Shown piece by piece: positions 3,001 to 47,082 of a stretch of 47,082 nt of DNA. The notes beneath the pieces are model-generated. The model searched no databases, was not told where the DNA came from, and saw only the letters and a program-made list of their open reading frames with translations. This DNA comes from a virus. Both the position numbers and the translations under genes were made by a program. Each line of letters starts with the position of its first letter. Position 1 is the stretch's first letter. The DNA lies in the IMG/VR virus record IMGVR_UViG_3300046055_000016, positions 1-47,082 of that record. The stretch is one strand, 5' to 3'.

Positions 3001-4193
3001 TGGCAGCTCGCGCTCGCATGCGCTGGGGCCGTGGTGAGCCTACTGACGTGCCCGGGCTAAGCCGCTCGCGAAGCGGTGAGCTATTCGACACCTCGACCAG
3101 CATGGGCGAGTATCAACGAGACATCTCTCAGACCGCGACGCTGGGTCGCAATGTTGGTCAAGCCGCAAGCGAGCGCTTCTCTCAGATCCCGGTAGTGGAT
3201 GAGTTCATGCGCACGCCCCCGGGCCGGTTCGTGCGTGGCGCGACTTCAAGGGTTGGTGGATGGGCCAAGCAGGCCGTTGAGGGGGCTTTTCGTTTCAATA
3301 GCTTTTTTGATCACACCTATCGCGCCTCGGTGTATCTGTCCCAGCTCGAGGAGGGCGCTAACCCAAACCAGGCCATTCGCGCGGCCAAGCAGACCCTGGG
3401 CGACTACACCTCGATGAGCCCAGTCGAGCGCCAGGTGGTGCGTCGCTCATTTCCTTTCTATGCCTGGACGCGCCACATCACCCAGCTCACGGCCAAACAG
3501 CTAAAGCCCAGCAACATCGACCGCTTTGCCATGCAGGCCATGATGATCGAGATCTGGGGCGAGCCAAACGAGCAAGAGGAGATGCTGCCCCACTATCGCC
3601 GAGGCGACATCCAGATCAGTGAAGGCGGCGAGGATGGTGACCCGTCGTTCATCTCCGTTGGCGGGGCCAACCCCTTCATGGACGTGACCCGCCCGTTCGT
3701 CTCTGGTGGACGGCCCTCGCTACGTAGCACAGCCAGCCTTATGAGCCCTCTTGCTCAAATGGGCCTAAGCAACATGACCGGGATTAGGCCACTGACCCAG
3801 CGTCCCTACTCGCGGCCCTATGAGCGCCTTGATCCACAAGGCAGGCCCATCCCGACAGCGCCCTCCATTCCCGATCAGCTCGTCGACCTCTCACCGCAGC
3901 TAAGCCTTGGGCGATCAATCTATCGTCGCGCTTCAGGCGAGACCCTGGCGCGCTATGGCAACGACCAGCCGGTGCTCGCCGAAGGTGTCGAGGAGCCCTC
4001 GCTGCTGGAGAAGGCCGGCCGCCAGCTATTCGGCATTACCTCGGGACAAGAGGACGTTGCCCAGCGCGCCAAGCGCCGCCAACAGCGCTTCGAGCGCGCG
4101 GCCAACCAGCGCTTTGGCTATCAGGAAAAGCTCAAGAGATACCAGCAAGAGGGCTCTGACTCACCCCTGCGTGATCTGCCCCTGATCCCCTAG
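1..4193 (+). CDS. Large virion-associated (internal/ejection-type) protein, C-terminal part; 5' end open at the contig edge
   Basis: The frame of ORF 111..4193 is open from base 3 with GC3-rich codons. No SD-preceded start is seen at 111 or 186. It is 1360+ aa and the last gene of the rightward virion operon. The C-terminal region looks conserved (FRPAWQVFNFLGNN, FPFYAWTRH) but I could not assign a family. Function is inferred only from size and position. Confidence 0.6.
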   Translation, partial: GASGRQQRARHGAAHAAGARSQSLADLTKQVRRPRSVPEGEFSPTAQRTREQLNRFVDNTPMGRKLAQSRFSQAGRGVRRTMSRTRQAMAKHRANLNARFDMGKATQRIARGIQQRYSQLVDEGVNVPRRSMDTKKSTQTQLEQDPAQMGRVMDEIEQANQRRRARGEDPIDIPGTRDLDWSLTRVAQAERAQGLPEGSLQRLVTRKVQLDDLLESQDEAQRLAREAGQAQGMSPDEIDAMLRQNMSSELMQPQEGNVAWSQLDESTKDVVNRAARTWRSWQREHEAQLIQEGRISTNQGAVRMTQRRPTQRVARNPQSGDLDFNTDPDAVMRGDQQAQNLTVDEVPQYLADQHRRVQKLEQDPSATPDQVQKARADLDKAEKRWEKEEPTNDIYEPMGPDEQPPTERVSPEAGTQKKLRRKQRLIDKAERDVNRQTQLVRDKFAAHRAEALDRYNELHTEMRMREKEALNADPETTQGQQAWDTYARAYEQLNAFENELVLSGIGGRPKPMRDLAGQIEGKLSDLLYYARNSDELAPDEAALARFNEAVGELEQVQSLMPEVSPILAMIGREGLSGVSPELRALHRAARANPRLADTPEYQQALAWASNRTSRAGNAQVQGSPRHQWAANRGQSSVRRGRQALGSQGGDYFDQQIRELQDLARRYQDESRDFEQHLAQTQSQARAHLEDLAKKQQKLQAARTRMKNFQDDVNQRLETAPRHYREALRFAREEAPELDRMLREDLEVPHHLVDELNLTGLPTILEELADAGVNVSYVSTKAAESGDFMARPSGALSATAQRRFRRAHASGDINAEDQPSIIIPKEQMDIVTNKLRDDAVSYIHQKFGRTPRQALEEAGYSRGKVDEIMEEAEGKTTYDEAGNVISRTRPQPHVLSQKMADIGFAQADDPRFAKNLQRSDEAPRSDIWLKESLADIAHDALTPGKFEKAMSAVYDPVMGAWKAQVLAFRPAWQVFNFLGNNIMPIIGGGAKASQLYRYLPMAARARMRWGRGEPTDVPGLSRSRSGELFDTSTSMGEYQRDISQTATLGRNVGQAASERFSQIPVVDEFMRTPPGRFVRGATSRVGGWAKQAVEGAFRFNSFFDHTYRASVYLSQLEEGANPNQAIRAAKQTLGDYTSMSPVERQVVRRSFPFYAWTRHITQLTAKQLKPSNIDRFAMQAMMIEIWGEPNEQEEMLPHYRRGDIQISEGGEDGDPSFISVGGANPFMDVTRPFVSGGRPSLRSTASLMSPLAQMGLSNMTGIRPLTQRPYSRPYERLDPQGRPIPTAPSIPDQLVDLSPQLSLGRSIYRRASGETLARYGNDQPVLAEGVEEPSLLEKAGRQLFGITSGQEDVAQRAKRRQQRFERAANQRFGYQEKLKRYQQEGSDSPLRDLPLIP

Positions 4194-5599: not shown

Positions 5600-6388
5600 C
5601 TAGCTCAAAGGGATACCCAAGCGCTTGGCCAGCTTGGGCACTGTTGGCCGGCTCTTGCGGCCTAGCACGTAGGGCAGTTTCTTGGACGAGTCAACGTCCT
5701 CGCGCACCTTGGTGCGGATCATGTCGTGTGGGCCAAAGCGGACACAGAAGTTCCACTTCTCCTCGGTCAGGCTCTCACTCTCTCCTTCCTCGACGAAGCA
5801 ATACCCGATGTAGTCCGGGCTCGCCTCGACGACCGCTCGGCTGCCTTTGGACACATCGGGGGAAACTTCAGTCTCCCCGGTGTCCTCGTCCTCGACCGTC
5901 TTGGACTGGGAAGTCATGATGATGTGTATGGGGTTGTCACGCTCGCTATCGGCCAGGTTGTACCAAAACACGATCTGATCGGTCATGAACGACAGGACCT
6001 TGCCCCAGCCCTGCATGTCCAGGCCCTTGGGGTTTTGGGTGACTTCCTGAACACTGTCCTCACTGATCCCCAGCAAGTAGCGCACATACATTTTCTGTAG
6101 CGCTGAGATCGACTCGAGCATGACCGCCTGACAATCCACTTGACCGGTCTGGGTGTCCCAGAACAGTTGGCTGATCTCGGTCACGCTCTGAGGGCGCTCG
6201 ACCATGATGTTGTCAGCATACGATGTGTTCTTGATCGACTTGATCCCCTTCTCACCGGGCAAGTCGATGTAGAGCGTTTTACACGATTGCGCGATCGTTG
6301 AGCCAAACGAAGTTTTGCCGACACCGGATCTTCCATGTAATAACATCTTCAATGCATCATCGTTCATTTTTGTCAATGGTGTTGCCAT
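5600..6388 (-). CDS. RecA-fold AAA ATPase (Sak4/AAA_24-like recombination ATPase)
   Basis: Walker A is HGRSGVGKTSFG and a Walker B-like segment is IHIIMTSQ. Its size and its position next to the DUF669-like and Cas4-like genes fit this call. Confidence 0.7.
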   Translation of the reverse strand: MATPLTKMNDDALKMLLHGRSGVGKTSFGSTIAQSCKTLYIDLPGEKGIKSIKNTSYADNIMVERPQSVTEISQLFWDTQTGQVDCQAVMLESISALQKMYVRYLLGISEDSVQEVTQNPKGLDMQGWGKVLSFMTDQIVFWYNLADSERDNPIHIIMTSQSKTVEDEDTGETEVSPDVSKGSRAVVEASPDYIGYCFVEEGESESLTEEKWNFCVRFGPHDMIRTKVREDVDSSKKLPYVLGRKSRPTVPKLAKRLGIPLS

Positions 6389-7816: not shown

Positions 7817-8092
7817 CTACTCGTCCTCGCCCTGCTCACCCTGGGCACCGCCAGCGCCGCCCTGAGTAACACCTTGGGAGGCTGGCTGCTTGGCCACCTT
7901 GCGCACGCCCTTGGGCTTTGCGCTTACGGGCTGTTTGATCGAGGTCTCAAGGCCCTTGAACGGCCCTGACGTGAAGCGGATGCGCACTCGGTGGGTGACC
8001 GAGTTTTGGCGGCGATCGACCTTCTCCACGATCGACAGCACCTCGACCTGAGACGAGAAGGTCTCGCCGACTTGTGGGCTCTCTGCCATCAT
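7817..8092 (-). CDS. Hypothetical protein with a basic, Gly-rich C-terminus
   Basis: ATGA overlap with the polymerase stop; GC3-rich; 91 aa. Confidence 0.6.
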   Translation of the reverse strand: MMAESPQVGETFSSQVEVLSIVEKVDRRQNSVTHRVRIRFTSGPFKGLETSIKQPVSAKPKGVRKVAKQPASQGVTQGGAGGAQGEQGEDE

Positions 8093-10563
8093 GTTCCCTT
8101 TCTGTGGACTTCGACTTCTCTGGCTTTAGGATCTGCCCAAAACCTGCCTATAGTATACTCTATCTTTAGGGGTACTGTCAACTCCACACCGAACTTTGGC
8201 TTTAGGTCAGGATACAGAAGCGCGTCTGAGACGATCTCCAAAGACTCCTTGAGGTGGGCCTTGGACACCTCCAGCAGCACCGAGTCGTGCACGGTGCCCA
8301 CCACTCGGGCTTTTTGGGGGTCCAGGGCCTTGTGGGCGGCGATCATGCCCAGCAGGGTCAAGTCACTGGCCAGGCTCTGGACGGGGGCGTTGATGGCCAT
8401 GCGCTGCGCCTCGCCGACCTTGGCGGGGTTGCCCGAGTCGATGTCCGGTAGGCGGCGCTTGCGCCCCAGCAGGCTGCGCACCTGCCCCCGGCGAGCGATC
8501 GAGCGTTGGTGCTCGTGCCACAGGCCGATCTCTGGCCACTGCTCGAAGAAGGCCGAGCGTAGCTCGCCCGCCTGTTGGGGGTCGAAGTCGAGCTGATAGT
8601 CGCGCCAGGCTTGGGCTGAGAAGGTCGCTGCGGTCATCGAATATAAGAAACCAAAGTTTACAGATTTTGCTTTGAATCTCAAGTCTTTCCAGATTGGCCG
8701 AAGTTCTTGTACAGCCGATGGTCCGAGGCGTGACAGGAGCGGCATAGCGTCACTAAGTTCGATGGTTGGTTGTTGGTTCGGTCGTGATCCTTGTGATGAA
8801 CACACAAGTTCTTGGTATTCCCGCAATGCTCGCAGGAATCTTTTTTGTGTCGTCGATACTGAGGAGGGGATATTCCACCTTTCCAATGTGGATTGGAAGC
8901 CCCCTTCTGGACTCCACCCCTCCCTGCTCCTGGATTCTTTATCCTGCCTGATCTCACTGCACGCTCGTATGATCTCTTCCTCGCTAACTCCCTCTGGCGC
9001 ACCTTCGCACAGCTCTCGCAAAACTTTTGCGCCGGTCCTGTTGGGAGGTAGACCTGATTGCACGAGAAGCATGTGCGCGGTGCGAATCGTTTCATCCGTA
9101 TCAACCTTCATCGCCATCTCAAAGTGCAGGTCTCTACCTTCCAGATACGCCTGCAGCATCCTCGGCTCGCACCTGCCCGTGGTAGCTCGGCTGGCTAGCT
9201 CGGCGGCTACACGCAGCTCGATCTGGCTGTGATCGACCTCGACGAACCAATGCCCTTTGGGTGCGGTGATCGCCGAACGCAGGCTCTTGGGAGTCTGTTG
9301 GATGTTGGGCTCTTGTGAGGAGGTGCGCCCGCTTACCACGTGGGCCGGCTTGTAGCTGGGAAAAAGCCGTGCGTTGACCGCACGGTTTTGCCAGTCGAAC
9401 AGAAAATCCAGCTTCTTGCGATGGTCGCGATAGGCCAAAAGGGTCTGGGCGAAGGGATAGCCCATCTGGGCAAGCCGGCTCAACACGGCCGCGTCCCAGC
9501 AGGGCGAGCCCTTGGGCGTGGTCTCGATGACCGGCGCAAGAGCGCCCATGAAGGCCGCAAAGAACTTGCTGGTGGGGCTCCACGAGATCGGGTAGCGTTT
9601 GTCCTTTTTCTTTTTACACGTCTTGGGGATGGCCGTGCGCTCACAGATGACGCACAGGGGAGGATTGGCCGGCTTGACGGTGTCGGTCTCTTTGGTCTCT
9701 GCGTGGGTCCACTCCACGCCACACACCGGGCACTTCCAGGCTGCGCACTGCTCGGTATGGACGTGGGCTTGATCCTCGCCGTACTCCTCCAACAGATGCG
9801 ACGGGATCCATTGGTACAGCTCACGCTCGGTCCTGATTAGCTCACTCTCGCTTGCGATTGTCAAAGACTGAACCTGCTCCAGGTCCAGGCCCAATCCTGT
9901 GTGCTCCACATGGATGAAGGCCCTGATCGCCGGCATGCCGATGTAGTGCCACACGCGGGCCACGGCCTCATCCTCTTTGAGCTGCTGGCGGTGAAGCTCG
10001 TGGAGCTGATAGCAGTAGTCGGTGTCCTGGGCGTTGTAATGAGCCAGTTGCTGCCAGGGAGCATCTTCGGGGGTGGATAGGTCGATGCCCCACGGGGCGA
10101 TGCCCAGCTCTTGATCAACGACCGACTTCAGGTCCTTGGGGCGGTTCTCATCCAGCAGGTGGGTGCTCATCATCGTGTCCCACCACGCACACGGCGCGAT
10201 GTTGATGCCACCCAATACTTGTATCCAGCGCGCCTCGTACTGGATGTTGTGGGCGATGAGCTTGCCCCCGAGCGGATCGTCGTCTTTGGCCATGGCTGCC
10301 TGGACCAGCCGACGCAGGACATCGCGCCAGTGCGGCCACGGGGCAGCGGGATGAGAAAGCGGCACCACGTAGCCCATGCCTGGCGTGGTCGTAAACGAGA
10401 TCGACACGATCCGCGCGCCGGCTGCCCTCGGGTTGAGATTGCTTGTGTTGTCGGTCTGGGTCTCGATATCCAGGCACACCTTTTGGGTGGCATTGAGCAG
10501 CGTGATCAACTGCTCAAGCTCGCCTTGATTGCCGATGTGCTCAGCGACCACCGGAAACGTCAT
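8089..10563 (-). CDS. Family A DNA polymerase with 3'-5' exonuclease domain, carrying a ~140-aa insertion between motifs A and B
   Basis: Exo motifs: CLDIETQ, HNIQYEARW, YNAQDTDY. Pol motif A: VDHSQIELRV. Motif B: RFKAKSVNFGFLYS. Motif C region: VGTVHDSVLLEV. The reading frame is continuous over 824 aa according to the ORF track. Confidence 0.9.
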   Translation of the reverse strand: MTFPVVAEHIGNQGELEQLITLLNATQKVCLDIETQTDNTSNLNPRAAGARIVSISFTTTPGMGYVVPLSHPAAPWPHWRDVLRRLVQAAMAKDDDPLGGKLIAHNIQYEARWIQVLGGINIAPCAWWDTMMSTHLLDENRPKDLKSVVDQELGIAPWGIDLSTPEDAPWQQLAHYNAQDTDYCYQLHELHRQQLKEDEAVARVWHYIGMPAIRAFIHVEHTGLGLDLEQVQSLTIASESELIRTERELYQWIPSHLLEEYGEDQAHVHTEQCAAWKCPVCGVEWTHAETKETDTVKPANPPLCVICERTAIPKTCKKKKDKRYPISWSPTSKFFAAFMGALAPVIETTPKGSPCWDAAVLSRLAQMGYPFAQTLLAYRDHRKKLDFLFDWQNRAVNARLFPSYKPAHVVSGRTSSQEPNIQQTPKSLRSAITAPKGHWFVEVDHSQIELRVAAELASRATTGRCEPRMLQAYLEGRDLHFEMAMKVDTDETIRTAHMLLVQSGLPPNRTGAKVLRELCEGAPEGVSEEEIIRACSEIRQDKESRSREGWSPEGGFQSTLERWNIPSSVSTTQKRFLRALREYQELVCSSQGSRPNQQPTIELSDAMPLLSRLGPSAVQELRPIWKDLRFKAKSVNFGFLYSMTAATFSAQAWRDYQLDFDPQQAGELRSAFFEQWPEIGLWHEHQRSIARRGQVRSLLGRKRRLPDIDSGNPAKVGEAQRMAINAPVQSLASDLTLLGMIAAHKALDPQKARVVGTVHDSVLLEVSKAHLKESLEIVSDALLYPDLKPKFGVELTVPLKIEYTIGRFWADPKAREVEVHRKGT
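8637..9110 (-). mobile_element. AT-richer insertion tract containing the HNH gene and a recoded polymerase motif B
   Basis: The sequence is visibly less GC-rich than the flanks. Motif B codons use A/T third positions (aga ttc aaa gca aaa tct gta aac ttt ggt ttc tta tat), unlike the rest of the gene. The borders are approximate. Confidence 0.6.
8679..9104 (-). CDS. HNH endonuclease (probable homing endonuclease), encoded in the +1 frame inside the polymerase ORF
   Basis: N-terminal zinc ribbon CFSC...CESC. HNH core is CEHCGNTKNLCVHHKDHDRTNNQPSNLVTLCRSCHASDH. The ATG is at 9095 (TTG at 9104). The stop codon overlaps the R codon of polymerase motif B. Confidence 0.85.
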   Translation of the reverse strand: MIRMKRFAPRTCFSCNQVYLPTGPAQKFCESCAKVRQRELARKRSYERAVRSGRIKNPGAGRGGVQKGASNPHWKGGISPPQYRRHKKDSCEHCGNTKNLCVHHKDHDRTNNQPSNLVTLCRSCHASDHRLYKNFGQSGKT

Positions 10564-12080
10564 TGCCCATCCAGGGTCAGCGCGCGCCGATTTTGTAACA
10601 GCGCGTTCTCCAGGGCGATCTTGTCGCGGTGGGCCGACAACAGCATGGTGTCGACCGAGTTGGGCACCACCAGGTGGTGAAACGTCACCGGCCTCGTCTG
10701 GCCCTGGCGGTGCAGGCGATCCTTGGCCTGATCGTAGTCGTCGCGGCGCTCCGACAGTGAGTAGAACACCGCGTGGCTGCTGGCCACTAGCTCATTGACG
10801 GCTAGGCTCATGGTGCGCTGTTGGGCCACCATGGCCGCCGCGCCCTCGGTAGCGGCAAAGCCCTGACGGGCGCTTAGCCTGGCCTTGTGAGCCGTTTGAC
10901 CCTCGACGCGAAACGTCGGGATCGAGCCAAAACGTCGAGCGAGCATGTCACAGATGCGTTGAATATCGGGGCGAAAGTGGGCGTAGATGACCACCTTCTC
11001 CTGGGCGTCGAACAGGTCCTTGAGCAGATCGGCCAACACGTCGAGCTTGCTGGTGCCAAGCTCTTCGGTCTGCGGTTTGTAATAATCGTCCTCATAGCCA
11101 AGAAAGCCGCCGGTGACTTGTCGTAGCCGCAACACCTTGGTTAGCACGATGGGGGCAATGGCCGTCTGTCCCGAGGGCAACTCGGCCATCAAGTGTTGGC
11201 CCAGCTCGCGATACACCTTGGCCTCGGTTTTGCCGAGATCGACCGGAACGGTGCGGTCGGTCGTTGCGGGCAGGTCCAGGCACTGTTCCTTGGTGGCAAT
11301 GAACGCATCTTGCTTGATCTTTTCGCGCATCTGATCCTGGCGCACAAAGCGCGTGGGTTGCCTGCCCTCGAAGCCACCCCACACGGCATAGCGTCGGCAG
11401 AAGTCGGCCCAGCGCTTGTCGAAGCGATCGGGATTGAGAAACTTCCATTGAGAGTAAATGTCCAATGGATTTTTGGGTGATACGGTACCGGTCAGGATCT
11501 GGCGCTTGGGCACCATCTCGCCAACCCGACGCAATCCCACGGCCCGATTGGCCGTGTGGGACTTCAGGCGGTGTACCTCGTCGACCGTAACTCCGTCGGG
11601 CTGCCATAAACCGATTGCCTCGACGATGCCATCTTGCATGGTTTTGGTGGCCGTGCCCCTCATACGCGCCTTGGACGCAAAGGCGTCGTGGTTGATTAGC
11701 ACCACCCGCAGCTTGCCATGGCCGGGTTGTTTGGCCAGGGCCTCGATGCGCGCGATCTTGGTGGCAATGGAGTAGCGCCCATCGAGCTGGATCAGCTCCA
11801 GCGGGACGCTATCGGGCAAGTGCAAGGAGAACTCTTGGGGCCAGGTATCCAACGCATTTAGCGGTACGGTGACCATCCAGTCGACTTGCCCCCGCTTTGT
11901 CCACAGCAGGCCCATGTAATCAATAATCGGCTTGCTCTTACCAACTCCGGGGTCGCAAAGTAGCCCGCACACGCCCTTGCGCTCGATAATGGCCCGCAGG
12001 GCCTGTGCTTGGTGGGTCATGGGCGTCGTGGCGAACTGATAGCCCCCTAGCCTCGCCCCGTTATGTGTGTGAGTACTCAT
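10560..12080 (-). CDS. SNF2-family DEAD/DEAH-box helicase
   Basis: Motif I is DPGVGKSKP, motif II is DEVHRLKS, and motif VI is QAKDRLHRQGQTRPV. The start was set to the ATG at 12080 (MSTHTHNG), just downstream of the primase stop. Confidence 0.9.
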   Translation of the reverse strand: MSTHTHNGARLGGYQFATTPMTHQAQALRAIIERKGVCGLLCDPGVGKSKPIIDYMGLLWTKRGQVDWMVTVPLNALDTWPQEFSLHLPDSVPLELIQLDGRYSIATKIARIEALAKQPGHGKLRVVLINHDAFASKARMRGTATKTMQDGIVEAIGLWQPDGVTVDEVHRLKSHTANRAVGLRRVGEMVPKRQILTGTVSPKNPLDIYSQWKFLNPDRFDKRWADFCRRYAVWGGFEGRQPTRFVRQDQMREKIKQDAFIATKEQCLDLPATTDRTVPVDLGKTEAKVYRELGQHLMAELPSGQTAIAPIVLTKVLRLRQVTGGFLGYEDDYYKPQTEELGTSKLDVLADLLKDLFDAQEKVVIYAHFRPDIQRICDMLARRFGSIPTFRVEGQTAHKARLSARQGFAATEGAAAMVAQQRTMSLAVNELVASSHAVFYSLSERRDDYDQAKDRLHRQGQTRPVTFHHLVVPNSVDTMLLSAHRDKIALENALLQNRRALTLDGQ

Positions 12081-12102
12081 CGCATGCCCTGTGCGTGTGG
12101 AG

Positions 12103-13953
12103 CTAAGAGAAGTCGACTTCGATGACAACGCCGGTATCCTCAGCCCACCAGTACTTGGTGGCATTATCACTCTCAGATTGGGTGTAGAAAGTAACTGGAG
12201 ACTCGACATCTTTCGCTAACTCATCAAGTTCTTGTCTAACTATGTCGTTTTTTCCTTTGACAAGCTCGACTATCTCAGAAGTTGACAAAGCATTATCAGG
12301 ATCTCCCGTTTTCTCTAGCAACATATTCGTTACGCTGGTGCGGATGCGCTCTCGTGCACTGGTAGCTTGTGCTGAGTTGTCAATGCGACGCACGCGCGTT
12401 GATCCATCGCTTATTCCACCGACGGTGTAGACCACGCGCCTGGGCAAGCGCCCCAAGCGGTCCTTGTTGATCTTTAGGGCAATGCGGCCTTGCTTGGGGG
12501 GATCTAGGGCAAAGTCTGACTCCACCGTGACCATCCAAGCCACATCGGTCTTTGCCTTCTTGGCCCCAGCCCCACGGGCGTAGGTCCCTCGATCGTCTTT
12601 GGACTTGGTGACATGGTCGATGATGACCACCGTTGCCCCGTGTTTCGTTATCGGTATAATGAACGAATGATACCAAGACGTAATGTCTGAGTTGGAGTCT
12701 TCCTGAAGTTCTGCTTGGTCCAGCATGTCACTGCATGAGTCCATAACTACAATATCAGGGCTTATGCTCTGGAGATCATAAACCAACCGCTCTTCATCAT
12801 TTTGACTTATAGCTAAACCAGGAGACTCATAATACCAGAACTTATCATCAAGGGTGTCAGGGTCGGCGCCCATGCGTGAAAGGCGGTCTGCGGTTGTTGA
12901 CAATCCTGTTTCCTCGTCGATCCACATTACGGTATAGCCTTGATGGACCAACGAGGACATAATTGATAACAGCAATAGGCTCTTGCCCGACTCGGGTGGG
13001 CCCTGCCACCAATGGACCATGCCGGCATACAACACTCCCGACACGATCTGTTCGGGGTCGTTGACACCCTCGCGTATCGCTTGACCCACGAGACGGCGGT
13101 TTGGGATGCCTCGGCCCTTTTCCTCCTCGGCCTCGACCTGTAGCCAGGCAATGGCTGTATCGACGACCCCCTTGCCCAATAGCTTGGTCAAGGTGGGCCA
13201 CCCTTGAGTCTCACCGTCTTGGTCAAGGCGCCGCTGGGTCGTCTCGGCGTCCTGTTTGCGCTGAGGCCACTCCTCATCGCCACTGACTTGGGCCACAGCG
13301 GCTACGAACGCCTTGGTGGGCCCAATCTCCCAGCCACCCCGTAGCAAGCCGCCACACAGGGCCACAGCGGCGTCATGACGGCTCCCTTCCCCCGGCCAGT
13401 GACGCGCGAGCAGCGTGGCAGCGGCCAAGTGGGCCACACACTCGCTTAGCTCATCGCCGCTGGGATCACCCGGGTCCTGAGAGGTCCATACCCCGTCTCG
13501 GCGTACCTCGAGCCAGCCCATGACCTCGTTGGACGGGTGGGTCGACGGCGGCACGATCGTCTGAGACCCGGTCGAGCGCAGCTCGACCAGAGAGGCGCGG
13601 TCGGTCGGGTCGACGTACTTGGCTGTGGCCGGGCAGTTGCTGGTGGGCACCTGATACCACCAGTGGCTGCACAGGGCGCTGTGACGCCCATGGATCATGC
13701 GTGTCTCTGGCAACAGTGTGCTTGCCAGCTCGATCGCCTCGTGGGTGTCTAAGTCCACGTCGATGAGGCCGTAGCTGGGCTGGCCCAGCAGCAGGCCGAG
13801 GTTGCCCTCATCGGGGAAATAATGGTCGATGTCGTCGTGGTCGTAGCGCGCTTGAGGCCACCCCGGGAAGGTCGGCGCCTTGTTGCCCCACGCGATAGGC
13901 ACAGGGGCGTAGCCGCACCGCAGGGCGTAGCGAGCTGTGTCGATCACTCCCAT
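12103..13953 (-). CDS. Bifunctional primase-polymerase (prim-pol) / RepA-DnaB-like helicase
   Basis: The N-terminal prim-pol has GLIDVDLD and STGSQTIVPPSTHPS. The central P-loop is GPPESGKSLLLL, with Walker B IVVMDSCSD. SD is AAAGGAGA. Confidence 0.85.
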   Translation of the reverse strand: MGVIDTARYALRCGYAPVPIAWGNKAPTFPGWPQARYDHDDIDHYFPDEGNLGLLLGQPSYGLIDVDLDTHEAIELASTLLPETRMIHGRHSALCSHWWYQVPTSNCPATAKYVDPTDRASLVELRSTGSQTIVPPSTHPSNEVMGWLEVRRDGVWTSQDPGDPSGDELSECVAHLAAATLLARHWPGEGSRHDAAVALCGGLLRGGWEIGPTKAFVAAVAQVSGDEEWPQRKQDAETTQRRLDQDGETQGWPTLTKLLGKGVVDTAIAWLQVEAEEEKGRGIPNRRLVGQAIREGVNDPEQIVSGVLYAGMVHWWQGPPESGKSLLLLSIMSSLVHQGYTVMWIDEETGLSTTADRLSRMGADPDTLDDKFWYYESPGLAISQNDEERLVYDLQSISPDIVVMDSCSDMLDQAELQEDSNSDITSWYHSFIIPITKHGATVVIIDHVTKSKDDRGTYARGAGAKKAKTDVAWMVTVESDFALDPPKQGRIALKINKDRLGRLPRRVVYTVGGISDGSTRVRRIDNSAQATSARERIRTSVTNMLLEKTGDPDNALSTSEIVELVKGKNDIVRQELDELAKDVESPVTFYTQSESDNATKYWWAEDTGVVIEVDFS

Positions 13954-25904: not shown

Positions 25905-28064
25905 ATGAGCTATCGCGATGTGGTCCTGGCCGACAACCCGGCCGCCTACTGGCGCTTGGGCGAGTCGTCGGGCTCGACCGCCTACGACGAGACCAGCAAT
26001 GGCTACGACGCGACCTATCGGGGTGACCCCACACTCGGGGTAAGCGGGGCGGCCAAGCTATCTGATACAGCTATCGACTGTGATGGCTCGGGTGATTATG
26101 TCGACGCGGGTGACATAATCGACCCGATGGCAGGTTCGTGCTCGTTCGAGCTGTGGGTCAATATGGACCAGCTCGAGACCGAGCGCGGGTTGATGTTAAA
26201 AGACGACGGCAGCGACGGGTGGGGGGTCCAGCTCGGCGACGGCACGGCCGATGGCAACCTGCGCTTCTTCCAGCGTGGGGCCTCGACGGTGATCCTTGCT
26301 ACGACAACAGATCCCGTCGCAACGGGTCAATGGCACCACATCGTTGCGGTCTACGATAGCTCGACTGGTGATCGCCAGATTTATGTGGATGCAGCGCTCG
26401 AGGCCAGCGACACCATCGCCACGGGCGGCTTTGCCTCAGCCTCGGCCAAGCTGGCCATCGCGGCTCGCCGCGATGGCGGCGATGCGGTTGATGGCCAAGT
26501 TGACGAGGTAGCCGTCTATACCGCCGCCTTGTCGGCGAGCCAGATCCAGCAGCATTACGACGAGGCGCGAAAGGTCGAACTCGACGCCCATGTGTCGGTG
26601 TTGGAGCACAAGCGGCTATTTCCCGGCACCTTTGAGGCCCACACGGTCGAGTCGGTTCATTCTCCCCTGGGCATCAAAATCGGCCTTCCCGCTCATACCT
26701 CGATCCTGGCTCACCAAGACCAGTCGGACTCCGACACCGGCACGGACAACTCGAAAGAAGGGCAAGCAAAGGCCCTAAAGTCCACCCTCGGGTATGGCTG
26801 GGGGGTGCCCGATCCCAAGGCTTCAGCCAACGAGAAGATCGAGACACCTAGGGAGAGTTGGCCAACAGAGCGCACCTCGGAGGCCAAGCGCCTCATGCAG
26901 GATCAGGGGGTCGACTCATCTACGTCTGAGGGCGTGGGCGAGGCCATGCGCAAGCTGGGAGAAGACATCTCCCACGACGTGCGCACGAACTTACAACGCT
27001 ACGAGTGGCACGCCAACACCCATACCCATCGAGAGGTGTTCGGGCTCGCCCAAGCGCTGTTCGTTGTCACGGGGTATGGTGAGCCCTCGTTGGTTCGTCT
27101 TCGCGCCGACACGGGCGCCATGGAGTGGGGCATCGACTCGGATACCGCTTATGGCTATCACTACATTGATGTTGATACCAAAAACGAGCGCATCTTTCCC
27201 ATGACTGACCAAGAGGAGACGATGGATGCGTATAACTTTCAAGGTAGGCGGATATGGCGAGTGAGGCCTTTTCGCGATCTTCCCGATGTGGCTTTCAAGC
27301 CGGATATTTTGGCATTGTCTTGGGATCGAGAGAAGGTCTATACGTATTACCAAAAAGGAGAGAGGTTCGAGGAGCCCTACGAGGCGGTGTTCATTGAGCT
27401 AGACGCCGCGGATGGCACAAGGAGGGTCCTTTCCGTTTCACACCCGACTGAGTCCTCTAATACAACGATATTCGATGTCACTGAGGATTATATCTACCAT
27501 GTGACGCCAAAGGACACTGGAGGGTTCAATAACTATCCCCATGTGCGCAAAATGAGCAGGGCGGATGGGTCCCTTGTATGGGAAACAAAAATAGAGCAGG
27601 CTGAGCCCTACCTCCATCTATGTATCACAGAGCGGATGGTGTGGGTACAGATCCACCTAACAATATACATGCTAAAGGAGGATACGGGCGAAGTGTTGGA
27701 CTCTCATACCCTTCCAGAGGAAGAGGATAGCTCCCCTGTTCGCCTATGGAAGGATCATGACAAGAAAGATAGCGTATTCTCTGTTGTATACACAGATGAT
27801 TATGGTGGGCCCTATCGCTCCAGCCTTCATTATGCGACGGCACAAGCCCGTAGCATGAGGGTCGATGAGAATATATGGATAAAGGACGGATACCCACTAT
27901 ACGACCATGTTGTGCGAGATGGGGAGGGGAACTTTTTCTTTGGAGCCACGTTCGGAGGCTATGGCATCTTGAAGCTGGACTCCGACTTGAACAGGCAGTG
28001 GCAGGAGGACAATCTCTACCACCGCATGGTTATGACTGATCAGGGCTACTCGGCACGATGGTAA
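25905..28064 (+). CDS. LamG (concanavalin A-like lectin) domain protein with a C-terminal beta-propeller-like region; probable receptor-binding fibre or spike
   Basis: The N-terminal ~230 aa have a LamG signature (AYWRLGE...FELWV...WHHIVAVYD...IYVDA...VDEVAVYTAALSASQIQQHY). The C-terminal third has repeated W/Y-rich beta segments and markedly AT-richer codons. Confidence 0.75.
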   Translation: MSYRDVVLADNPAAYWRLGESSGSTAYDETSNGYDATYRGDPTLGVSGAAKLSDTAIDCDGSGDYVDAGDIIDPMAGSCSFELWVNMDQLETERGLMLKDDGSDGWGVQLGDGTADGNLRFFQRGASTVILATTTDPVATGQWHHIVAVYDSSTGDRQIYVDAALEASDTIATGGFASASAKLAIAARRDGGDAVDGQVDEVAVYTAALSASQIQQHYDEARKVELDAHVSVLEHKRLFPGTFEAHTVESVHSPLGIKIGLPAHTSILAHQDQSDSDTGTDNSKEGQAKALKSTLGYGWGVPDPKASANEKIETPRESWPTERTSEAKRLMQDQGVDSSTSEGVGEAMRKLGEDISHDVRTNLQRYEWHANTHTHREVFGLAQALFVVTGYGEPSLVRLRADTGAMEWGIDSDTAYGYHYIDVDTKNERIFPMTDQEETMDAYNFQGRRIWRVRPFRDLPDVAFKPDILALSWDREKVYTYYQKGERFEEPYEAVFIELDAADGTRRVLSVSHPTESSNTTIFDVTEDYIYHVTPKDTGGFNNYPHVRKMSRADGSLVWETKIEQAEPYLHLCITERMVWVQIHLTIYMLKEDTGEVLDSHTLPEEEDSSPVRLWKDHDKKDSVFSVVYTDDYGGPYRSSLHYATAQARSMRVDENIWIKDGYPLYDHVVRDGEGNFFFGATFGGYGILKLDSDLNRQWQEDNLYHRMVMTDQGYSARW

Positions 28065-46081: not shown

Positions 46082-47082
46082 ATGGCCCATATCACCGATA
46101 AGGGTGGCGACAGCAACGGCATCACGATGGGCCAGCGTCGCCAGCTCGACCCTTCCAAGCCGGCGGATCCCAGCGAGGGTGTGTCGGGCTTTCTGGGCAA
46201 CCTGGCAAGCGATGCCAGTGGGGTGCTGTCCAAGCTGCCCCGGGCGGCCTATGAGGTTGGCTCGGCCGTGGGCGGCGACATCGCCCAGATTGATACCAAC
46301 ATCTTCGAGGAGATCGAAGGCGGCGACGCCGACTGGCAGTTGGACACGTGGAACAAGCTCGCCGAGCCCATCCTGACCGAGTCGGTGCCCAAAACCGCCA
46401 ACGTGCTCTCTGGCGGTCAGATCGACTTCTGGCAAGAGATCGCCGAAGGTGGCGGCCTTGGCGAGGCCATGACAGCCCAAAAAGAGTTCCAAGAAGAAAC
46501 GCTGCGCAACTTCTACGAACGCCCCGCCAGTTTCACACTTGAGCACCTGGGCAACGTCTCGTTGGTCAGCAGCGGTGCCGGCGCAGCCCTCGGTAAGGCC
46601 GCTGCTGGCGCCAGCGCTCGCGCTGGTGGCCCAGCAGCACGCACGGGCGGCATCACCGGCGCCAAAAAGGCCGCACGCGTCCAACGCAAGGCTGACTTGA
46701 AAGAAGGCAAGGCGCCCACGACCTCGCCTCGGCGCGCCCGCCAAGAGGTCTTGCGCGAAATCGAGCAGCAAGGCGGCCGGGCTGGCTCACTGGCCAAGGC
46801 CAGCCGGTTGAGCAGCCGCACCATTGGGCGTCCCTACTCTGCGGCCGCGCGCAAGGCCGTGGGCACCAAGATCCCCGGCCTGGGTGGGCGCTATACCGAC
46901 GTTGACACCGAGACGGGAGAGCCAACAAGACCTCGGGGTCCGCTTGGCTCACGTGGTGGGGGGACCGGCCCAACGGGAACTGGTGCGGGCGTAGCCGCAG
47001 CCGGCTCGTTAGCTGACATGACGCTGACCGGCGGCGTGGGCGGCGCCGTGGCGGGCACGTTGCTGTCGGCCCGACGCGCCGG
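46082..47082 (+). CDS. N-terminal part of a large Gly/Ala-rich virion protein; open at the contig end
   Basis: The ATG at 46082 lies 9 nt after the upstream TAG. No stop occurs before the end of the window (333 codons plus 2 nt). The ORF is absent from the track, presumably because it lacks a stop. Confidence 0.6.
   Translation, partial: MAHITDKGGDSNGITMGQRRQLDPSKPADPSEGVSGFLGNLASDASGVLSKLPRAAYEVGSAVGGDIAQIDTNIFEEIEGGDADWQLDTWNKLAEPILTESVPKTANVLSGGQIDFWQEIAEGGGLGEAMTAQKEFQEETLRNFYERPASFTLEHLGNVSLVSSGAGAALGKAAAGASARAGGPAARTGGITGAKKAARVQRKADLKEGKAPTTSPRRARQEVLREIEQQGGRAGSLAKASRLSSRTIGRPYSAAARKAVGTKIPGLGGRYTDVDTETGEPTRPRGPLGSRGGGTGPTGTGAGVAAAGSLADMTLTGGVGGAVAGTLLSARRA
47028..47082. repeat. Right copy of the perfect 55-nt inverted terminal repeat
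   Basis: Exact reverse complement of bases 1-55. Confidence 0.95.

Follow-up and report, generated by a model that had tools for sequence, protein, structure and literature searches.

A mobile HNH endonuclease gene lies out of frame within an open family A DNA polymerase gene of uncultured phages

How can a homing endonuclease gene lodge within an essential gene and leave it intact? To our knowledge, the usual view is that such genes persist there solely by means of self-splicing introns, inteins, or splitting of the host gene. The question is raised by a 47-kb phage contig of metagenomic origin (IMG/VR virus record IMGVR_UViG_3300046055_000016, positions 1 to 47,082; this whole stretch of 47,082 nucleotides is called the window below), in which an HNH homing endonuclease gene lies in the +1 frame of a family A (Pol I-type) DNA polymerase gene and the polymerase frame runs through it without a stop. 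The original prediction, made from the letters of the window, held that the polymerase is translated through the out-of-frame endonuclease gene. The avoidance of stops in the polymerase frame argues for this dual-coding arrangement, and we consider it likely that a mobile HNH homing cassette resides inside an essential polymerase gene without splicing and with both frames translated.

The polymerase gene (8089..10563, minus strand) encodes 824 amino acids with a 3'-5' exonuclease domain and matched the Pfam families DNA_pol_A (E=1.9e-55) and DNA_pol_A_exo1 (E=3e-6). Motif A (DHSQIELR, aligned with DYSQIELR of the Klenow fragment) was placed at residues 444-451 (9211..9234, minus strand), and motif B, which forms the O helix (RFKAKSVNFGFLY), at residues 629-641 (8641..8679, minus strand). 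In an alignment of 116 sequences, residues D444, R629, K633, H759, and D760, which are the catalytic residues of the polymerase, occupied invariant columns. An AlphaFold2 (AF2) model built from this alignment had a mean predicted local distance difference test (pLDDT) score of 87, with scores >90 in the core, and the core matched Klenow and Bst Pol I with target-normalized template modeling scores of 0.81-0.85. Thus, the protein has motifs A, B, and C with the catalytic Asp, Arg/Lys, and His-Asp residues and the Pol I fold, as family A membership demands. A Pfam scan of the 19 other largest open reading frames (ORFs) of the window (all >=262 amino acids; ten of them without any Pfam match) found no second DNA polymerase gene, in agreement with the earlier claim that this is the only replicative polymerase encoded there.

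The insert itself could be delimited by comparison with relatives that lack it. A protein search gave three insert-free polymerases with 93%, 93%, and 79% protein identity and lengths of 695, 565 (partial), and 696 amino acids, respectively, and protein and DNA alignments with these relatives fixed the insert at residues 488-628, or 141 codons of the polymerase frame (8680..9102, minus strand). In the window polymerase, a 12-residue native loop (TGKxPxxVSxxE) has been exchanged for these 141 residues, a net gain of 129 amino acids. At the position of residues 488-628 the insert-free form has the native loop TGKDPKQVSSLE, and the insert-free allele of the two phages with 93%-identical polymerases (L001 and L003) reads ...ATCACCGGCAAG...CGCTTCCATGCC... 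around the insertion site. The polymerase-frame insert includes the peptide VLRELCEGAPEGVSEEEIIR. Compared to Klenow, the insert takes the place of about 6 residues between AAE741 and ETVTSEQR754, and the insertion site in this alignment is a loop of the fingers subdomain that leads into the O helix. The coordinates and the insert-free relatives agree with the original prediction on the placement of motifs A and B and on the extra segment between them. A MAFFT alignment paired PEGVSEEE of the window with PENVSGTE of the native loop, but the idea that this stretch is a remnant of the loop was rejected because it lies inside the HNH gene (codons about 33-41) and because the polymerase-frame reading of other insert-bearing lineages does not resemble the native loop.

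The same polymerase has a second, clade-specific insertion at about residues 271-320 (9604-9753, minus strand), with a CxxC...CxxC spacing like that of a zinc ribbon and pLDDT scores of 54-76. It is present in the homologous polymerases P0002-P0007 and absent from P0008.

The HNH gene nearly fills the extra segment in the +1 frame, as had been described. It encodes 138 amino acids (8679..9095, minus strand) from its likely ATG start at 9095-9093; counted from the first TTG, the ORF spans 8679..9104. Its TGA stop (8681-8679) spans the polymerase codons for Leu628 and Arg629, the latter being the Arg codon of motif B. A Shine-Dalgarno-like GAAGG (9105..9109, minus strand) lies 9 nucleotides upstream of the ATG within the polymerase codons Met-Lys-Val, and a stop in the HNH frame at 9110-9108 precedes the ATG. 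Purine-rich runs of this kind (e.g., GGAGG, AGGAG, and GGAAGG) were found 4-10 nucleotides before the ATG in most other lineages described below. The simplest reading of these signals is that the endonuclease is probably expressed through its own internal initiation.

The encoded protein has an N-terminal zinc ribbon (CxxC...CxxC) followed by a C-terminal CxxC-HH-N-N-CxxCH-H core. In an HNH alignment of nine members, C9, C12, C26, C29, C88, C91, H101, N109, N113, C118, H122, and H126 were invariant, and C121 was Cys in eight of the nine, with Tyr in L019. The window protein alone matched the Pfam family HNH_3 marginally (E=4e-5; 23.6 bits, just under the gathering cut-off of 24.8 bits). Across the family, HNH_3 was matched by 8/9 members (best 1.5e-7) and the Pfam family HNH by 6/9 (best 1e-7), and a family profile compared with solved structures gave McrA (6ghc, E=0.009) and I-HmuI (1u3e, E=0.29). 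The profile matches across the family and the presence of the catalytic and zinc-binding residues place the protein among the HNH (beta-beta-alpha-Me) endonucleases. Homologues in cultured phages share 33-39% identity over >85% of its length and are mostly annotated as HNH endonucleases.

The central question is then whether the polymerase frame is open by chance. Between 8600 and 9200 there are no stops in the polymerase frame, compared to nine in the third sense frame. When the synonymous codons of the HNH gene were shuffled with its protein sequence and codon usage kept, the shuffled sequences had a mean of 5.86 polymerase-frame stops, close to the roughly six that had been expected before, and none of the 5000 shuffles was stop-free (P<2e-4).

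The relatives of this locus allowed the same question to be asked more widely. In a first polymerase search, three distant polymerases (about 35% identity) were found to carry a homologous insert in the same place, and their DNA has an open polymerase frame and, in the +1 frame, an HNH ORF. A tblastn-based family search, in which the HNH protein alignment was compared with viral and metagenomic contigs irrespective of whether the polymerase frame was open, gave 15 loci. These represent 11 non-redundant lineages, and their homologues are full-length, at 42-59% identity. All of these loci have the HNH gene in the +1 frame of a family A polymerase gene, bounded by D[LI]H on one side and motif B on the other, and the polymerase ORFs that carry the insert are open over 695-957 codons. 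By comparison, a polymerase-type frame was open across the gene in 0/78 more distant HNH relatives, free-standing or intron-borne, from the same result sets. When 1.84 billion representative proteins were searched by HMMER for the polymerase-frame peptide, 16 further polymerase clusters came up; the 15 retrieved all proved to be family A polymerases, each with its insert in that position. In GTDB genomes, the HNH profile matched only a 5-kb contig binned with a Nocardioides metagenome-assembled genome (MAG), which carries the same element as L014 and L018, and one free-standing HNH copy in an archaeal MAG. Searches of 50,697 phage genomes with the region and the polymerase (blastn and tblastn) gave no close relative, the best protein identity being 32-35%. 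Where gene calls could be retrieved for these loci, only the long polymerase ORF is annotated across the insert. Relatives with and without the insert therefore both exist, the polymerase frame is open in each insert-bearing lineage checked, and, as judged from these comparisons, the arrangement in the window is that of a conserved family and not a one-off.

Several homologous polymerases have additional domains or insertions. Among the insert-bearing proteins, P0131 (1279 amino acids) has a C-terminal D12-class methyltransferase and P0128 an N-terminal uracil-DNA glycosylase by Pfam, and P0127 and P0132 have N-terminal extensions that appear similar by eye. The TGRLS/PNLQQ motif holds an intein-like insert in P0129, which has the out-of-frame insert too, and an intein-like insert with an HNH in P0045. 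In P0041 and P0065, an HNH_3-type insertion is found in frame within the exonuclease domain.

Synonymous shuffling predicted 1.7-9.7 polymerase-frame stops per lineage where none was observed, with P<=0.03 in 10 of the 11 lineages. Because the frame is open in 11/11 lineages and in 0/78 control HNH genes, and because of the shuffle P values, the open polymerase frame is, on this comparative evidence, a selected property. Two measures indicate which of the two frames is constrained in sequence. First, divergence between lineages at codon positions 1, 2, and 3 of the HNH frame was 0.36, 0.38, and 0.55, respectively. Second, the HNH frame had a mean amino-acid identity between lineages of 0.53, compared to 0.33 for the polymerase frame and 0.31 for the third, unused frame. 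These values indicate that the HNH gene is under ordinary purifying selection and that the polymerase-frame peptide is held open with no detectable conservation of its own sequence. Since the third positions of the HNH gene differ at 55% of sites, the sequence has turned over extensively without closing the polymerase frame. In the lineages L013 (at about 3337-3339) and L169, the HNH frame ends prematurely at a stop, yet the polymerase frame is open, and L169 (P0128) also has no obvious HNH start codon. These two endonucleases may be decaying, late in the homing cycle.

Maintenance of the frame in all lineages, including these two, would also be expected if the polymerase-frame peptide had been co-opted as a functional subdomain of the fingers and the insert were kept for the benefit of the polymerase. 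Two further features suit such a role: a Trp four residues before the Arg of motif B (W-x-x-x-R) recurs even past the end of the HNH ORF, and in the AF2 model the O helix begins further upstream, within the last part of the insert (helix 614-640). However, the identity of the peptide between lineages is near that of the unused frame and far under that of the HNH frame, its pLDDT scores are 39-66 compared to >90 in its flanks, a Pfam search of it gave no domain, and close relatives function without it. Co-option of the peptide is thus improbable, and selection for an open frame as such accounts better for a peptide that keeps its frame and not its sequence.

A frame that is open in one contig could also arise from an assembly or indel error, or from a pseudogene left open by chance in GC-rich DNA. 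Chance openness does occur here, as the window has an antisense ORF of 186 amino acids (8672-9232, plus strand) that is open across the whole insert and has no Pfam match. This ORF was rejected as meaningful, since the equivalent frame is closed in the homologous inserts of L005, L006, and L007, so that it is open in the window by chance. For the polymerase frame, an artefact or a dead gene is hardly credible: the same relation of the frames is found in 11 lineages assembled independently from different samples, none of the shuffles was stop-free, all catalytic residues of the polymerase are intact, and the Pfam scan of the 19 other largest ORFs found no other DNA polymerase gene.

If the polymerase frame is translated, the endonuclease gene need not be removed from the transcript. 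The opposite possibility, that an unrecognized or reduced self-splicing element with a catalytic RNA overlapping the HNH ORF yields a mature mRNA without the insert, gains some weight from two phages in which homologues of the window HNH (35-36% identity) do ride in true group I introns at motif B of the polymerase: Acinetobacter phage vB_Ab_1137_KEN_01 (L170, 3389-4043), with polymerase exons recognizably of family A, and E. coli phage 4HA13 (L096, 2920-3532). An intron could thus have been the ancestor of the read-through form. These introns also served as positive controls, and Rfam detected both (E=3.8e-6 for KEN_01 and E=0.0095 for 4HA13). The same Rfam model, Intron_gpI, had no match at E<=10 in the window between 8000 and 9800, and none was found at E<=0.1 in 9 homologous loci of the family. 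The control introns have 80-140 nucleotides of noncoding sequence beside the ORF, and their polymerase frame stops right after the 5' splice site. In the window insert, only about 8 nucleotides before the HNH ORF and 0 nucleotides after it are not part of the ORF, and the insert RNA showed no unusual stability, its fold energy having a z-score of 0.20 relative to shuffled sequences. Furthermore, if the insert were spliced out as an intron, stops in the polymerase frame would not need to be purged, yet they are purged in all 11 lineages. Cryptic splicing is accordingly assigned a low probability, and the verdict in the original prediction that the insert is not a group I intron is borne out by the empty Rfam results next to the detected controls and by the near absence of non-ORF sequence. 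In 4HA13 the annotation shows an overlap of HNH and polymerase genes; it was considered as a further case of the arrangement in the window and rejected, as the locus proved to hold a classical intron, where a stop and a change of frame occur. By these comparisons, one endonuclease lineage and one polymerase region are joined in two carrier architectures.

Removal of the insert at the protein level, either by a noncanonical intein-like excision or by protease clipping, would produce a near-native or a two-chain polymerase. An open frame suits any posttranslational mechanism, and homing endonucleases that are out of frame have been documented in true inteins (bioRxiv 10.64898/2026.09.14.751524; bioRxiv 10.1101/2025.01.02.630785). 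In the insert, however, Pfam matched the polymerase frame to neither a Hint nor an intein domain. The junctions (V|D and L|R in the window) vary among lineages and have no Cys, Ser, or Thr nucleophile, and the residue that follows the insert is the Arg of motif B. In addition, a stretch of 141 residues with such poor conservation cannot specify a splicing fold. We consider protein-level removal very improbable, and the earlier statement that the element is not an intein stands. The statement that no stop and restart splits the polymerase was likewise upheld, as the gene is a single uninterrupted ORF of 824 codons and the same is true in all 11 lineages.

Compared to the relatives, the DNA around the insert has features that suggest recent movement. 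The GC content falls to 0.45-0.58 over about 8600-9150, relative to 0.62 for the window as a whole, and the AT-richer tract reaches into motif B, whose codons differ from those of close relatives and have more A/T at third positions. On DNA comparison with these relatives, both flanks of the insert are diverged in the manner of co-conversion tracts. In the upstream flank (9103..9193, minus strand), 8-9 mismatches per 30 nucleotides were counted at 9134-9193 over a background of about 2-4. In the downstream flank (8621..8679, minus strand), which overlaps motif B, there were 8-10 per 30 nucleotides at 8621-8680, dropping to 0-5 beyond. Divergence was about 30% within about 60-90 nucleotides on each side of the insert and about 10% elsewhere. 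The co-conversion tract proposed earlier is thus supported, and it fits the import of the cassette together with flanking donor DNA from a polymerase allele of lower GC content. Of the related proposal that motif B was recoded for immunity of the homing site, the recoded codons were found; their role in immunity is conjectural, as they may simply be donor sequence.

Movement between lineages is seen most directly in L005 and L007. At the DNA level, the two inserts share 98% identity and the rest of the polymerase genes 73%; identity is also raised for about 100 nucleotides downstream, a pattern that indicates recent homing. The identity of the HNH proteins exceeded that of the host polymerases in every pair of lineages compared. 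The presence or absence of the insert among relatives, the diverged flanks, and the transfer of the HNH gene together form, as far as comparison can tell, the signature of active homing with co-conversion.

These observations are consistent with the following sequence of events. The cassette occupies a surface loop of the fingers just before the O helix of the family A polymerase. The endonuclease would be translated on its own in the +1 frame from the internal Shine-Dalgarno sequence and ATG, and ribosomes in the polymerase frame would pass straight through the insert, so that the mature polymerase would keep about 140 extra residues, read in the shadow of the endonuclease frame, at the tip of its fingers. 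Read-through translation is suggested by the selection against polymerase-frame stops, which keeps the frame open without conserving its sequence. During co-infection, the endonuclease may cut insert-free polymerase alleles near motif B, and repair from the occupied allele would copy in the cassette along with about 60-90 nucleotides of flanking donor sequence.

Several points weigh against this model. The support for it is comparative for every member of the family, and the lineages share ancestry, so that their open frames are not fully independent events. The O helix moves at every nucleotide addition, and a neighboring insertion of 140-165 residues could harm the enzyme. The arrangement was seen in no cultured phage in the searches of the 50,697 phage genomes, of the HNH homologues, and of GTDB. 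The Rfam and folding-energy tests are blind to an unfamiliar or very degenerate ribozyme that overlaps the ORF, which would favor cryptic splicing, and the window is a single metagenome contig, which would favor an artefact. With respect to the enzyme, tolerance of the insert appears plausible in the structural model, where the insertion falls within the loop that precedes the O helix and low confidence is confined to the insert beside a confidently modeled core.

The closest known system is the ShiLan domain, an HNH endonuclease encoded out of frame in the DNA methylases of mycobacteriophages that has been described computationally (Arsenault, Gosselin & Gogarten 2025, PMC11855218; background in PMC9957025). 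No described precedent was known to the original prediction; one does exist, as hidden HNH genes of this type in phage methylases had been published (PMC11855218). Each system has an insertion at a conserved position of a phage gene, and another reading frame of this insertion holds a complete HNH ORF. In both, the host frame is free of stops, no signature of an intron or intein was found, and the peptide read in the host frame lacks known domains, with predictions of a loop-like or poor structure. Homing is implied in both by a patchy distribution among relatives, and the evidence is computational only. The polymerase locus thus has the defining features of the ShiLan type, namely a site that is occupied or empty among relatives, an open host frame, a poorly structured peptide without a domain, and evidence of homing.

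The two systems differ in several respects. First, the ShiLan host is a dispensable methylase, whereas the host in the window is an essential replicative polymerase with the insertion site beside the catalytic O helix. Second, the ShiLan HNH has 195 amino acids and is read in the third frame from a GTG start with no detectable ribosome-binding site, while that of the window has 138 amino acids in the +1 frame with a Shine-Dalgarno-like sequence and an ATG. Third, the endonucleases are apparently not close homologues and probably belong to different HNH lineages, as suggested by the size, frame, and domain order described for ShiLan (PMC11855218) and by the absence of any Mycobacterium phage among 32 tblastn matches to the window HNH at E<=1e-8. 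Fourth, group I introns aimed at motif B carry other members of the window HNH lineage. Finally, the selection against stops was measured for the polymerase family, in 11 lineages that have diverged more deeply. No polymerase example is given in the ShiLan paper (PMC11855218), and a search of the available literature gave no report of an HNH gene overprinted on a DNA polymerase I gene. The architecture itself was already known; what is new relative to ShiLan is the essential host gene and the measurement of stop selection in many lineages.

Introns with endonucleases in phage polymerase genes are also known. I-PfoP3I is an HNH endonuclease in a group I intron of the family A polymerase gene of cyanophage Pf-WMP3 (PMC3428280), and polymerase introns of T7-like phages are attributed to Bonocora & Shub 2004 as cited in PMC11855218. 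The intron-borne HNHs of KEN_01 and 4HA13 share with the window HNH their endonuclease family, a phage DNA polymerase as host, motif B as target, and homing with co-conversion as the presumed mode of spread. They differ in having about 80-140 nucleotides of ribozyme on either side, an immediate stop in the polymerase frame, and an HNH gene that is not overprinted on polymerase codons, while the window insert has no ribozyme, no stop, and complete overlap.

Like the window element, some homing endonuclease genes reside in essential genes without a conventional intron. Free-standing homing endonuclease genes split essential phage genes, as with mobE in nrdA of Aeh1 and the split gene 43 of some T4-like phages. 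"Fractured genes" (PMC2677866) are another case of such an insertion in an essential gene without a conventional intron. In these systems, the host gene is divided into two ORFs, with or without split inteins, whereas the polymerase of the window is one uninterrupted ORF. A further comparison is with endonucleases that are out of frame or antisense within inteins, as reported for cyanobacterial dnaX (bioRxiv 10.64898/2026.09.14.751524) and actinophages (bioRxiv 10.1101/2025.01.02.630785). There too, the host frame must stay open, because intein splicing requires it, and selection acts mainly on the endonuclease frame; the host frame is a self-splicing intein in those cases, while the polymerase insert has no splicing domain.

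The polymerase family suggests that homing endonucleases can do without splicing if a tolerant loop is entered and stops in the host frame are then selected out. With somewhat better than even confidence, we propose that this read-through invasion is a general third way into essential genes beside introns and inteins, that the polymerase family arose independently of ShiLan from an HNH lineage that travels in introns, and that the active polymerases of many uncultured phages work with a shadow peptide of 140-165 residues beside the O helix. If this is correct, more such elements would be hidden in phage genomes, as gene callers suppress the inner ORF, and long overlapping genes on the same strand would arise repeatedly in phages and be missed by annotation pipelines. 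The fingers of family A polymerases would be able to accept a large unstructured insertion before the O helix, which is of interest for polymerase engineering. The intron-borne relatives at the same motif may provide a natural system for studying how a homing endonuclease switches its carrier.

Other recognizable genes of the window encode, by Pfam, a P22-type portal protein, a Prim-Pol/helicase, an SNF2 helicase, a PD-(D/E)XK nuclease, an AAA_24 protein, and a DUF669 protein. The AAA_24 gene (5600-6388, minus strand) encodes 262 amino acids and has no intein. Its counterparts in L001 (13797-15557) and L003 (3389-5149) encode 586 amino acids with LAGLIDADG_3/Hom_end matches, which indicate an intein. 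Since L001 and L003 are the phages with 93%-identical, insert-free polymerases, two homing elements, the intein in AAA_24 and the HNH insert in the polymerase, are reciprocally present and absent among near-identical phages.

At the ends of the contig, positions 47028-47082 are the exact reverse complement of positions 1-55. These inverted ends are probably an assembly artefact rather than a true inverted terminal repeat, since their length of 55 nucleotides matches a common assembler k-mer. Two other islands of low GC content (12001-12900 and 27101-27800; 0.47-0.54 compared to 0.62 overall) are located at the primase-helicase/SNF2 junction and in a tail gene with a lectin domain, respectively.

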